From the UHGV virus genome UHGV-0222504: a stretch of DNA of 11,201 nucleotides; one strand, written 5' to 3'. Source of the DNA: a virus. Below are positions 6,001-11,201 of the stretch, in pieces; positions within the stretch are counted from its first letter, which is position 1, and each line of letters begins with the position of its first letter. The position numbers were made by a program.

Positions 6001-9000
6001 AAAGGCGTCATCACGATAAAGCGTGGCGTGGCCCGGGGGATCACGCTTCATACCGCGGTGAAGGACGACGACAGCGAAGCGGTCGGTATCATCCGCGCAC
6101 TGCTTGCCGGTGAGGAAAACGCCAGGCTGCGTGCAGCCCACTGGTTACATGAGAGGGAGCTGAAAGTATGAAGCTAATACTGCCTTTTCCGCCCAGCGTG
6201 AACACGTACTGGCGACACCCCAACAAAGGGGCATTTGCTGGTAAGAGCCTGATAAGCGAGGCGGGGCGAAAATTTCAGAGCGCGGCGTGCGCAGCAATAG
6301 TTGAGCAGTTACGTCGTCTGCCGAAACCAACGTCGGCACCTGCTTCAGTGGAGATCGTGTTGTTTCCTCCGGATAACCGGATCCGCGATCTGGACAACTA
6401 TAACAAGGCGCTGTTTGACGCCCTGACCCACGCGGGTGTGTGGGAAGACGACAGACAGGTGAAAAGAATGCTGGTGGAGTGGGGACCGGTTATCCCGAAA
6501 GGGAAGGTCGAGATCACTATCAGTAAGTATGAGAAACCGGCGGGTGCAGCCGCCTGATTAAGAGGAGAAACGAAGTATGAATAATCTGATGGTCATTGAT
6601 GGTATTGAAGTTCGTCGTGATGCTTATGGGCGTTACAGCCTGAACGATCTGCATCGCGCAGCAGTAGCATCTGGTGCAAATGCCAGAACCAAGGAGCCAG
6701 GAAAGTTTCTTTCCAGCCAACAAACTGTTGAGCTTGTTCATGAATTGACCAACACCCAGAATTTGGGTGTTGACCCGGTGAGTGTGATTCATGGGGGAAA
6801 TGAACGGGGAACGTATGTCTGCAAGGAACTGGTGTATGCCTATGCAATGTGGATCAGCCCGTCATTCCATCTGAAGGTGATCCGTACTTTCGACATGGTA
6901 ACCAGCGCACCGGAAAAATTATCCGGACAGGCTGCTGACAAGATGCAGGCTGGTGTGATTCTGCTGGACTTTATGCGCCGGGAATTAAACCTGTCTAACT
7001 CTTCAGTGCTTGGTGCCTGTCAGAAACTCCAGGAGGCTGTTGGCTTACCGAATCTGGCACCGCGCTATGCCATTGATGCTCCTGCTGACGCGCCTGATGG
7101 CTCAAGCCGCCCCACGCTGTCACTGAGTGCACTGCTGAAGCAGTATGGTATCCGCCTGACAGCTAATCAGGCATATCACCAGATGGTGAAGCTGGGGATC
7201 GTCGAGCAGCGCGAACGATACAGCCGTACCGCGATTAACAACATCAAAAAATTCTGGTCGCTGACAGCGAAAGGCTGCATGTTCGGCAAGAACATCACCA
7301 GTCCCGCCAATCCGCGCGAGACGCAGCCGCATTTCTTCGAATCCCGATTCCCTGAGCTGTTAAAGCTGCTCGATACCGTTCATTGAGGTGACCGTGAGAG
7401 CACTACTGACCCCTGAAATTGCCCCGCGTATGGGGATCGTATTGTTCAGACCAGGTTCAGAGCTGATGCCCCTGTTTATGCAGGGGCGTGTCCTGCTGGA
7501 GCCTGAGCCGGAACGTTATTCATCTTTCGCCAGTGGTGCCGTACCGGCGGCATCACAACCGCTGGCGGATGATCCTGCCGTTCGGGCCGTGTTCCGCAAT
7601 GAGGCAGTGATCCGTCGTGCTGGTGGCGTGGAATGTCTTGAAAGCTGGTTACTTCGTGAAAAAGGCTGCCAGTGGCCTCATTCCGACTGGCACAGCGAGA
7701 ACATGACAACAATGCGACACGCGCCGGGCGCAATCCGTCTGTGCTGGCACTGCGATAACCAGCTGCGCGATCAGTTCACGGAACGGCTGGAATCAATGGC
7801 AACGGATAACTGTGCCCGCTGGGTGTTGTCTGTTGTGCGTCGGGATCTCGGTTTTGATGATAGTCACGTTGTGACAATGCCGGAACTGTGCTGGTGGCTG
7901 ATTCGTAATGACCTGGCGGATGCCTTACCGGAAAGTGCAGCCCGTAAGGCACTGAGATTACCAAAGCCTGTTGTGCCGTCTGTCACCCGGGAAAGTGACC
8001 TTGTGCCTTCGGTTCCTGCCACCAGCATCATCCAGGATAAGGCAAAAAAGGTGCTGGCGCTGAAAGTGGATCCGGAGTCGCCGGAGTCTTTTATGTTACG
8101 CCCAAAACGTCGCCGCTGGGTTAATGAAAAGTACACGCGTTGGGTTAAGACACAGCCGTGTGCATGTTGTGGAAAGCCCGCTGATGATCCCCACCACCTG
8201 ATAGGTCACGGTCAGGGTGGAATGGGTACTAAAGCGCATGACCTCTTTGTGTTGCCTTTGTGCAGAAAGCATCACGACGAGCTGCATGCGGATACCGTGG
8301 CATTTGAAGAGAAGTATGGCTCCCAGCTGGAGCTGATATTTCGTTTTATCGATCGTGCGCTGGCAATTGGCGTGCTGGCCTGATTTTGTGGAGAACGTTG
8401 ATGCGTGATATTCAAATGGTTCTTGAACGTTGGGGGGCATGGGTGGCAAATAATCACGAGGATGTCACCTGGTCGTCTATTGCTGCAGGATTTAAAGGAC
8501 TAATCCCTTCAAAAGTAAAATCCCGTCCGCAATGTTGTGACGATGACGCGATGATCATTTGTGGGTGCATGGCTCGCCTGAAAAAGAACAACAGCGATTT
8601 GCACGATTTATTAGTGGATTATTATGTAGGTGGTATGACGTTTATGGCGCTTGCCCGTAAACATGGGCGTTCTGATTGCTGGGTTGGGCGTTTATTGCAA
8701 AAGGCTGAAGGTGTAGTTGATGGCATGTTAATGATGTTAGAAATTGAGCTAGAGATGGATCGTTAGAAGACCTCTTATTGAGGGGGTAATTGAATCAGTT
8801 TAATGTGTGGGGAGTCGATTTATTCTCCCCATTTTATTTAATTAATTTACTTAAGGTTTTAATTCATCAAGACGTTGTTGGATAGTGTTTTTGCTTGCGT
8901 TGTCTGTTATAGCCATTTGTTGTACTTGCCCCATTGCCATTTGAGTTTCCATCCACATATCGGCCCACACTTTTGTATCGTTATTAACTTGAGCGATAGT

Positions 9001-11201
9001 AAATCTGACTTTTGATACCGGGGTTGTTGAATAGGCATTGCCGATTAACATTTGTCCAAAGACAGCAGACCCGCCTTCCAGTTCTTTACCACATATAACA
9101 CTGCTGTTATCAGCGTTGTAAATTATCAACCCTCTACTATTGCAGTAATTCACAAGGGCATCTTTGACTTTATCTTTTGTCGTATTTTGATAAACCCCCT
9201 CAGGTTTTCCTGATTGAGTTTTCTTTATCAATGGTACGGAAGAAGTACAACCTGAAATGATAGTTGCGCTAAGTAATAGTACAGTCATTTTATTCATGTT
9301 TCTTATCCATTGTTAAGGGCATACCTACACAATTATTTTTATTGGAGATGAATAATCAACCGTTTACAATCGTAAAAAATCAAATATGCTGTTAAGAGTG
9401 GTTACTTCGCCACACAACTTAAACCCGCCGCTGAGCGGTTTTTTTGTACCTGTAAACTTGGTGCAGTACAGTAAACACGCTGGTGGTCGTGAATACTGCC
9501 CTTTTATCTTGCTGGCTTTTTAGACAAGAGTTATTGGTATGTCATGTTAACCAGAAGGGAAAAAGACATGCTAAAACAGCAAGATATGACAGAAACCGCC
9601 GCCGCAGTCCTTCATTTCTTACCTGCTGACAAGTGGGTAACGCCACGCATGATGACGAGAACTACCGGAGTAAGCGAAGCCCGGTGCCAGTTAATACTGA
9701 CTCAGTTAGTTCTGGCGGGTCTGGCGAAGGATAACGGCGGGTACGGGAATAAATTCAGACGCTGCCAGTAATGGCGGTTTCCTGCTGTGAAAATGGGCGG
9801 CTGGTGGGTGTTGGTAGCACCTGCCAGCCATTCGCTCATGCTTACTGGTCACAAGCGAACCACGGCCCACTGCTTTAGCGCAAAAGCAGAGTGAGCCTAC
9901 CAGAGTTACGCTTACTGATCCATGAAAAATACTGTAAAAATAAACAGTGTTGATTTAATCAACGCTGATTGCCTGCATTTTATTCAGTCCCTGCCTGATG
10001 ATTCCATTGACCTGATTGTTACCGATCCGCCGTACTTCAAGGTGAAACCCAACGGTTGGGACAATCAGTGGAAAGGGGACGAAGATTACCTTAAGTGGCT
10101 GGACCACTGTCTGGCCCAGTTCTGGCGGGTGTTAAAACCTGCCGGAAGCCTTTACCTGTTCTGTGGGCATCGCCTGGCATCTGATATTGAGATCATGATG
10201 CGTGAACGTTTCAACGTGCTTAACCATATCATCTGGGCGAAGCCGTCCGGACGTTGGAATGGGTGTAATAAAGAAAGTCTGCGCGCATATTTTCCTGCCA
10301 CAGAGCGCGTTCTGTTTGCTGAACATTACCAGGGGCCATATCGCGGCAAAAGTGACGGCTATGCAGCAAAAGAAAGGGAACTCAAACAGCACATAATGGC
10401 ACCGCTGATATCGTATTTCAGGGATGCTCGTGCCGAACTGGGTATAACGGCAAAACAAATTGCCGAAGCCACAGGTAAGAAAAATATGGTTTCCCACTGG
10501 TTTGGTGCCAGTCAGTGGCAGTTGCCGAATGAGGCTGACTATCGGAAGTTACAGGCACTGTTTTCCCGTATAGCGGCAGAGAAGTTTCAGGAACAACAAC
10601 TGGAACAACCACACCACCAGCTGGTGGCATCTTATGATTCACTGAATCGCAAATATTCTGAATTGCTGGATGAGTTTAAATCTCTCCGGCGCTATTTCTC
10701 CGTATCAGTCTCCGTGCCTTATACCGATGTCTGGATGCATAAACCCGTTCAGTTCTACCCGGGGAAACATCCGTGTGAGAAACCGGCGGATATGCTCAGG
10801 CAAATAATCAATGCCAGTAGTCGACCAGGTGATCTGGTTGCTGATTTTTTTATGGGATCCGGTTCCACAATAAAAGCAGCAATGGCGCTGGGGCGTCGGG
10901 CCTTAGGTGTTGAGCTTGAGTCAGAGCGGTTTAACCAGACAGTGAAAGAGATAAACGAGCTGGTGGGGAAATAATCTGGTGGCCACGTCAGGTGGCCTTT
11001 TTATTTCCATTACACAGCACCCGCATCTGCGAGGTGGGGTTATGAAATCCATGGATAAGTTAACAACGGGTGTCGCCTATGGCACCTCAGCAGGTAGTGC
11101 CGGTTACAAGGCCACCTGACGTGGCCACCAGATTATTTCCCCACCAGCTCGTTTATCTCTTTCACTGTCTGGTTAAACCGCTCTGACTCAAGCTCAACAC
11201 C

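Follow-up and report, generated by a model that had tools for sequence, protein, structure and literature searches.

The window analysed here is an 11,201-nucleotide stretch of the virus genome UHGV-0222504. It comes from a lambdoid prophage, of which it covers the early-right and late-control region. Q, the gene of the late antiterminator, is separated from its target, the late promoter PR', by 595 bp of AT-rich DNA (8767-9361) in which a gene for a 148-residue lipoprotein lies antisense to Q. This segment is probably a horizontally acquired moron that was inserted between Q and PR' of a lambda-like prophage, and its product is proposed to be an entry-blocking lipoprotein. The architecture is the textbook moron layout, with a cargo drawn from phrog_3152, an uncharacterized but already catalogued phage family. 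The features of the window are collected in Table 1.

The module was delimited as 8767-9361, between Q and PR', because homology of the Q region stops at 8760 and homology of the PR' region starts at 9362. On the left, a DNA identity of approximately 82% to quuD (DLP12), to the Q gene of 434 and to many lambda-like phages ends at 8760. Q itself (stop codon 8764-8766) is the left neighbour of the module and lies outside it. On the right, position 9362 is the first that is homologous to PR' of 933W and Lambda_4C10. An earlier note on this DNA, made from the sequence alone, had placed the insertion at 8767-9330; these limits were essentially right, and the homology breakpoints extend the module to 9361.

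The segment was compared with the definition of a moron (Juhala et al., 2000; Hendrix) in the form in which it is quoted in PMC3594210. The DNA is extra with respect to collinear relatives: Q directly overlaps PR' in 933W and other relatives hold different cargo at this place. The base composition is deviant. The G+C content is 36.6% for the segment, 38.0% for the open reading frame (ORF; 32.9% at third codon positions) and 49.6% for the whole window. Sliding intervals of 595 bp outside the segment gave a mean of 50.9% with a standard deviation of 3.6 and a minimum of 41.3%, so that the segment lies below every one of them; the uneven composition bears out the AT-rich region reported in the earlier note. 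Homologues of the gene are disseminated to unrelated phage positions (tail modules, the nin region, Mu-like and P1-like elements) in Enterobacterales, Haemophilus and Halomonas. With regard to transcription signals of its own, the module contains a hairpin with a U-tract on the + strand, the stem on the strand of the gene being without a U-tract, and a single sigma-70-like consensus match in the 64 bp upstream of the gene. The suggestion of the earlier note that the arrangement is that of a moron was thus upheld by the extra DNA relative to other phages, the deviant composition, the presence of a + strand terminator and a candidate promoter, and the differing prophage positions of the homologues.

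The lipoprotein gene, which the earlier note had correctly described as an antisense gene for a 148-residue lipoprotein, has as its start codon the first ATG that follows a stop codon. The N-terminus, MNKMTVLLLSATIISG|CTSS, was examined with the PROSITE PS00013 rule ([LVI][ASTVI][GAS]C, with the cysteine at positions 15-35, a basic n-region and an uncharged h-region). It has Lys3, an uncharged h-region and the canonical lipobox IISG|C17, in which I-S-G-C ends at Cys17, so that a signal peptidase II site is predicted, as the earlier note had supposed. The same rule holds for 18 of the 20 full-length homologues, and all 20 aligned sequences share Cys17. At +2 the protein has Thr, and the homologues have Ala, Thr or Val but never Asp. 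The mature protein of approximately 132 residues contains the motifs SGKPE, LIGNAYSTTP and ETQMAMGQ together with the conserved Cys52 and Cys69, which are likely to form a disulfide; such a bond would fit a periplasmic location. The corresponding family-wide motifs (SGKPE, LIGN(S/A)YSTTP and ETQMAFGQ) are kept from Enterobacterales to Haemophilus and Halomonas. The 20 full-length homologues are 49-96% identical, a pattern of purifying conservation. Because the lipobox, the cysteines and the motifs are conserved across hundreds of clusters, including contexts with no Q nearby, selection acts on the protein. The possibility that the ORF is spurious was ruled out by the same conservation across homologues.

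The full length of the protein (residues 1-148 of 148) matched the phrog_3152 hidden Markov model with an E-value of 1.3e-104; PHROGs gives no function for this family. Searches against Pfam, NCBIfam, PADLOC and PDB sequences returned noise only, and a literature search on PhiR40_1 and WP_001038608 gave no match. The UniRef name 'VirB7 lipoprotein' carried by a Xenorhabdus homologue was discounted, as it is assumed to be an automatic annotation based on the lipobox only. An AlphaFold2 model was obtained with a predicted local distance difference test score (pLDDT) of 85.8, and when BFVD and PDB were searched with Foldseek no structure matched at E <= 1e-3. The predicted alpha+beta fold is BamC-domain/DUF3568/KA1-like, of the helix-grip or TBP-like kind that occurs in some envelope lipoproteins. 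This is a fold resemblance only: for the BamC helix-grip domains, DUF3568 (Flpp3), DUF4468 and KA1 the sequence identity is 6-14%, the Foldseek E-values are above 1e-3 and no motifs are shared. A function is not transferable from a resemblance of this kind between a model and known folds.

The late promoter was located by alignment with 933W. Positions 9362-9450 align with 933W 20665-20753 with approximately 79% identity over 89 bp, a stretch in which the 933W record annotates pR', 'qut' and a rho-independent terminator. In the alignment the window reads TTTACA-AATCGTAAAAAATCAAA-TATGCT-GTTAAGAGTGGTTACTTCGCC...CCCGCCGCTGAGCGGTTTTTTT and 933W reads TTTACG-ATCGTAAAAATCTGCA-TATCAT-GATAAGAGTGGTTACATTGCC...CCCGCCGATGCGCGGGTTTTTTT. 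The counterpart of PR' is annotated as the 'pR' putative late promoter' (NC_000924, 20666-20693), and that of tR' as a terminator feature at 20726-20748; a terminator is also annotated in phage Ayreon. PR' was assigned to 9363-9390 and tR' to approximately 9424-9446 because both are collinear with these annotated features, and their predicted placement rests on homology to the 933W annotation. The consensus scan found the PR' hexamers independently of the alignment. The pR' promoters of 933W and H-19B have been characterized experimentally. The late regions of these phages (Q-pR'-qut-tR') resemble the window in that the -35 and -10 hexamers, the leader and the terminator are collinear; they differ in that 933W has nothing between Q and PR', whereas the window has 595 bp of cargo. 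The earlier note had not been able to locate the late promoter with confidence. The promoter is neither displaced nor missing: PR' lies directly to the right of the module and is followed by tR', and the lysis genes come later. A location of PR' between Q and the lipoprotein gene (8767-8850) was rejected on account of the terminator hairpins present there and of the 933W-homologous promoter block at 9363-9390.

The -10 pattern TAnnnT is common to six phages, and conservation of the -35 region is confined to the window, 933W and Lambda_4C10. The 21-nucleotide leader GTTAAGAGTGGTTACTTCGCC is identical in five phages that differ in their upstream cargo, mEp460_4F5, 569R4, cdtI and phiP27 among them, and it allows PR' to be placed in such phages even when the promoter lies hundreds of bases from Q. 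The stem of tR' varies by compensatory changes among the relatives (GCTGAGC, GATGCGC, GTCGAGC and GCCTGGC). In phage Ayreon, the Q protein of which is of another type (250 residues), homology was found only from the terminator onward.

The site between Q and PR' is occupied in several relatives. In 933W no cargo is present and PR' overlaps the 3' end of Q. 434B/DLP12 and Lambda_4C10 contain an antisense nmpC/ompD porin gene, mEp460_4F5, 569R4 and cdtI contain two antisense genes with no assigned function (one of them DUF6731), and phiP27 contains a forward gene for a 409-residue T5orf172/MUG113 protein (phiP27 L22; locus L017, 250-1479) that matches the PADLOC model PD-Lambda-1 at 2e-89. In lambdoid phages of the QuuD/933W type, the junction between Q and PR' is a hot spot for accessory and defence cargo, since the relatives hold a porin, a PD-Lambda-1 homologue, the lipoprotein and other genes there, and it should be useful for mining such genes. 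The genes in the slot of mEp460_4F5, 569R4 and cdtI code for proteins of approximately 290-313 residues and for a 147-residue ORF; they gave no match in PADLOC. Antisense cargo was located at 493-1419 (-) in locus L014, 493-1353 (-) in L015 and 12-1400 (-) in L016.

The comparison with nmpC drawn in the earlier note proved apt, as 434B and Lambda_4C10 hold antisense nmpC/ompD in exactly the same slot. Position and orientation are shared, an antisense gene for an envelope protein being located between a QuuD-type Q (PF06530) and the PR'-leader-tR' block. The cargo is different: nmpC/ompD encodes a 16-strand porin of approximately 360 residues that is unrelated in sequence to the 148-residue lipoprotein, and the flanking noncoding DNA also differs.

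The transcription signals around the gene were examined on both strands. The rightward terminator-like element begins 41 nucleotides past the stop codon of Q and consists of an 8-bp G+C stem (8807-8832) with a 10-nucleotide loop followed by AUUUUAUUU (8833-8841). On the minus strand the same stem is followed by ACACAUUAAAC, with no U-tract. The earlier note had described the module as inserted after the terminator of Q. A hairpin with a U-tract is indeed present, but it is part of the module-specific DNA, is oriented for the + strand and has no U-tract on the strand of the lipoprotein gene. The candidate promoter of the gene is sigma-70-like, with TTGATT (9359-9354), a 16-nucleotide spacer and AATAAT (9337-9332). 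No other promoter-like site on the minus strand falls entirely inside the 64 bp that separate the ATG from the conserved PR' block. Transcription from this site would give a 5' untranslated region of approximately 28 nucleotides. It stands back to back with PR' in divergent orientation, the two -35 hexamers being 3 bp apart. A second promoter-like site, TTAACA with an 18-nucleotide spacer and TAAAAT (9316-9287), was rejected because its -10 hexamer falls within codons 2-4 of the ORF.

The lipoprotein gene is situated on the opposite strand, upstream of PR' and outside the late operon. It would most likely be transcribed from its own sigma-70 promoter (9359-9332), divergently from PR', while the + strand terminator (8807-8841) would shield it from rightward early transcription. 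The lipoprotein would then be made in the lysogen independently of Q. Such expression is expected because the gene appears to have its own promoter, PR' points away from it and the terminator would shield it. The product would be diacylglyceryl-modified at Cys17, cleaved by Lsp and N-acylated, and the Thr at +2 would allow Lol to carry it to the outer membrane, leaving an alpha+beta domain of 132 residues tethered in the periplasm or at the surface. Anchoring in the outer membrane is predicted because of the lipobox and the Lol '+2' rule (Sec/Lgt/Lsp/Lnt processing).

The gene was found in 185 of 5426 complete Escherichia coli genomes (3.4%), including UTI89 and an O157:H7 strain, and the carriers are diverse human, animal and uropathogenic (UPEC) or O157 isolates. 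The whole segment from the end of Q to PR' was also found in 185 of the 5426 genomes, as well as in two phages, so that the gene is evidently fixed at the Q-PR' site within E. coli. Among 50,697 phage records searched with tblastn, only the isolated lambda-like phages PhiR40_1 and PhiR55_1 carry the gene; PhiR40_1 is a siphovirus that possesses H, M, L, K, I, J, Lom and Stf. A word-index search gave 31 homologue clusters in Enterobacterales, and an exhaustive HMMER search with a family profile gave at least 823 clusters (50% identity) at E <= 1e-3, and 408 clusters when the limit was set to E <= 1e-10. When a diverse alignment was used for a profile word-index search, hardly any further members and no informative names were obtained. 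Most members are lipoproteins of approximately 150 residues and some have an ordinary (SPase I-type) signal peptide.

A minority of the family members (among them P0101, P0105, P0114, P0116, P0141, P0188 and P0106) have C-terminal extensions that contain PDZ domains, in one case TPR/YfiO-like repeats and in one case also SHOCT. Distant members were also seen at 5740-6699 of locus L037 and on plasmid NZ_CP031358.1. To judge from the PDZ and TPR fusions, the phage copies may derive from a periplasmic protein of cellular origin.

The genomic contexts of 24 homologues were examined. Approximately 12 of them belong to siphovirus tail modules, where the gene adjoins the tape-measure gene or K, I or J. 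The gene directly follows the tape-measure gene in Citrobacter (P0010 and P0014), Photorhabdus (L025), Proteus (L028), Haemophilus (L031 and L032) and probably L029; it is located between K and I in Salmonella (P0004), Jejubacter (P0005) and Morganella (L026), next to K in Xenorhabdus (L033) and downstream of J in P0007. Eight of the contexts, this window included, are in other phage regions, among them the nin region (P0021), a P1-like DarA/ddrB region (P0019), Mu-like GemA/DUF3164 neighbourhoods in Halomonas, and primase-containing and terminase-containing contigs in which the gene is again antisense to its neighbours. The remaining four are unclear or chromosomal-looking. The family behaves like a mobile moron and markedly favours the tail or entry module.

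From genomic position only, we tentatively infer that the lipoprotein is a superinfection-exclusion or entry-blocking factor directed against incoming tailed phages, although we would not give this function even odds. The earlier note had suggested superinfection exclusion or envelope modification, and the genomic position may be said to favour that suggestion. Exclusion is preferred because of the linkage of the homologues to tail modules, the precedents of HK97 gp15 and of the mEpimmI lipoproteins, and the PD-Lambda-1 homologue in the same slot of phiP27. HK97 gp15, the first-named moron, adjoins the tape-measure gene, is expressed from the prophage and blocks genome injection (PMC3594210); the block depends on the tail of the incoming phage and not on a surface receptor (Cumby et al., 2012; PMC3594210). 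It resembles several of the homologues in being encoded next to the tape-measure gene and provides the favoured model for a mechanism with a conserved target, whereas it is a small YebO-like inner-membrane protein, is not a lipoprotein and is unrelated in sequence. In the mEpimmI phages, lipoproteins encoded in the structural cluster exclude phages that use the same receptor (PMC11893012). The working analogy is with these proteins (Lpp021 and Lpp010), with Cor (phi80, N15 and HK022) and with Llp (T5), the genes of which are linked to tail or receptor-binding genes, as in approximately 12 of the 24 homologue contexts. They differ from the present protein in that there is no detectable homology, the lipoprotein is approximately twice the size of Cor or Llp, and its carriers have no common J receptor-binding domain. 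A relation to Cor or Llp, one of those proposed for checking in the earlier note, was not found in comparisons with Pfam, PHROG functions, PADLOC, PDB sequences, PDB folds or BFVD.

The C-terminal 250 residues of J were compared in five carriers. The J terminus of PhiR40_1 is unrelated to those of the others, and the lipoproteins are 60-72% identical. The simple proposal that the lipoprotein masks the receptor of its own carrier was therefore left unsupported. Since the J domains are unrelated and the motifs are kept across very different hosts, a conserved target is suggested, for example a periplasmic entry step. As far as these sequence comparisons go, a step of siphovirus entry that is conserved and takes place in the periplasm (tail tip or tape-measure passage) is a likelier target than a single outer-membrane receptor. 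A post-adsorption block would explain the conservation of the motifs, the lodging of the genes by tape-measure or K/I/J genes and the unrelated J domains. The broader proposal, that the members of this large unnamed family (at least 823 clusters) are periplasmic lipoproteins carried by phages and that they stop siphovirus entry at a conserved step after adsorption, without masking a specific outer-membrane receptor, is speculative and we regard it as unlikely to hold.

Several observations weigh against an exclusion factor expressed in the lysogen. The candidate promoter is a consensus match only (9/12), with a first base of the -10 hexamer other than T. The unrelated J terminus of PhiR40_1 speaks against exclusion in the form of a simple receptor mask. 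The PDZ- or TPR-fused and chromosomal-looking members suggest a general periplasmic role behind the phage copies. Finally, a position in the tail module would also suit a fitness moron such as lom.

A rival explanation, which we hold to be rather unlikely, is a host-fitness or lysogenic-conversion factor in the manner of lambda Bor and Lom: an outer-membrane lipoprotein would alter the envelope (serum resistance, adhesion, or tolerance of stress or antimicrobials) and no phage would be excluded. The architecture is shared with the bor, lom and nmpC morons, nmpC/ompD being found in the same slot of relatives, and the diverse human, animal and UPEC/O157 carriers, UTI89 included, would suit such a role, as would the cellular periplasmic function suggested by the PDZ- and TPR-fused relatives and the resemblance of the modelled fold to domains of envelope lipoproteins (BamC, and DUF3568/Flpp3 of Francisella). 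The low frequency of the gene among complete E. coli genomes counts against it, and the strong association with tail genes in several genera is not predicted by it. Nor is there any similarity to Bor/Iss: Pfam Lambda_Bor gave no match to the lipoprotein, with nothing beyond noise at E <= 0.1, and no relation to Bor appeared in the fold comparisons. Bor, an outer-membrane lipoprotein moron of lambda (Barondess and Beckwith, 1995, as cited in PMC3594210), is alike in being encoded by a small lipoprotein gene of deviant G+C content that is located in the Q-lysis region, on the strand opposite to that of the late operon, and is presumed to be expressed in the lysogen. It is unlike in that bor lies downstream of Rz whereas the present gene lies upstream of PR', and in that the predicted fold differs. 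The Bor protein has approximately 97 residues, compared with 148 here.

Protection of progeny during lytic growth was considered improbable. The lipoprotein would mask a receptor or another envelope component and so spare released virions from cell debris, a role for which T5 Llp is the precedent, and the genes of most homologues lie within the late tail operon in the same orientation, so that their products would be made late. In the window, however, the gene is antisense and upstream of PR', so that Q-dependent late transcription cannot express it, and the unrelated J receptor-binding domains of the carriers do not point to a common receptor to be masked. A regulatory function of the antisense arrangement, with the protein secondary, would require leftward transcripts to enter and dampen Q, as lambda paQ does by antisense transcription, or the divergent promoter to compete with PR'. 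The hairpin that follows the ORF on the minus strand has no U-tract, so that read-through into antisense Q is possible, and the candidate -35 hexamer is as close as 3 bp to that of PR'. The strong conservation of the protein (lipobox, cysteines and motifs) in hundreds of clusters, also in contexts without Q, makes this explanation very improbable. We consider it just as hard to credit that the protein is a periplasmic inhibitor of peptidoglycan hydrolases (Ivy/MliC/PliG-like) that guards against lysis from without or against a tail-associated lysin. A periplasm-facing lipoprotein encoded near lysis or tail genes, with NlpC/P60 tail proteins among some of the neighbours, would be in keeping with such an inhibitor; no resemblance to Ivy, MliC/PliC or lysozyme inhibitors, which the earlier note had listed for checking, appeared in the sequence (Pfam) or fold comparisons.

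If the lipoprotein is an exclusion factor, as tentatively preferred here, it would add a widespread unannotated family with no Pfam, NCBIfam or PADLOC model to the prophage-encoded defences of the cell surface, and it could help in the study of how siphovirus DNA is delivered through the periplasm, a stage that is poorly understood. An entry blocker that acts at a conserved periplasmic step would be of wider interest. The part that may be worth further work is the family itself, which is large, has no Pfam model, possesses conserved motifs and is linked to tail genes.

Table 1. Positions of the module, its signals and the neighbouring genes in the window.
Feature	Position	Strand	Basis or remark
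cI-like repressor	1290-1964	-	Left part of the window
Second phage methylase, Dam-like, early region	5162-5848		
Late antiterminator gene Q, QuuD/933W-type, 126 residues	8386-8766	+	Pfam PF06530 Phage_antitermQ, 2.1e-51
Probable moron module, 595 bp of AT-rich DNA seen only with the lipoprotein gene	8767-9361		Composition and homology breakpoints
Small 7-bp hairpin just past the Q stop codon	8770-8787	+	RNA fold
Intrinsic-terminator-like element for rightward (Q) transcription	8807-8841	+	Terminator scan; fold z = -2.5
Lipoprotein gene, 148 residues, WP_001038608.1 ('hypothetical protein'), phrog_3152	8851-9297	-	First ATG after a stop
Signal peptide and lipobox codons, M1..I14-S15-G16-C17	9247-9297	-	Lipobox 9247-9258
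Candidate promoter of the lipoprotein gene	9332-9359	-	Consensus scan, 9/12 matches
Late promoter PR' (predicted): -35 TTTACA (9363-9368), 16 nucleotides, -10 TATGCT (9385-9390)	9363-9390	+	Promoter scan; collinear with 933W feature
Position equivalent to 933W 'qut'	9404-9411	+	ACTTCGCC here, ACATTGCC in 933W; within leader GTTAAGAGTGGTTACTTCGCC
tR'-like intrinsic terminator in PR' leader, CCCGCCGCTGAGCGG then T7	9424-9446	+	Terminator scan
75-residue ORF, first of the late operon	9544-9771	+	phrog_331; weak MarR/TrmB-like winged-helix signal
N6/N4 DNA methyltransferase, before the holin	9922-10974	+	PF01555

The remainder of the window has the layout of a lambdoid prophage. To the right of the repressor gene are replication genes, the Dam-like methylase, RusA, a KilA-N protein and a DUF968 protein, followed by Q. 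The late operon to the right of PR' contains the 75-residue ORF, the DNA methylase and, from approximately 11040, an EssD/S21-like holin. The region 600-1290, between a YfdQ-like ORF remnant and the repressor gene, is GC-rich (approximately 55%) and has overlapping mechanical ORFs only, with no convincing gene. Two Rfam matches at gathering level were obtained on the + strand, one to the isrK Hfq-binding RNA (3207-3283; 64 bits) and one to the C4 antisense RNA (3308-3395; 82 bits). Since both fall within the mechanical 278-residue ORF at 2847-3683, this ORF is probably in part noncoding. The isrK-C4 region looks like the antirepressor-control cassette of the Gifsy-1/P1 type in the early-right operon.

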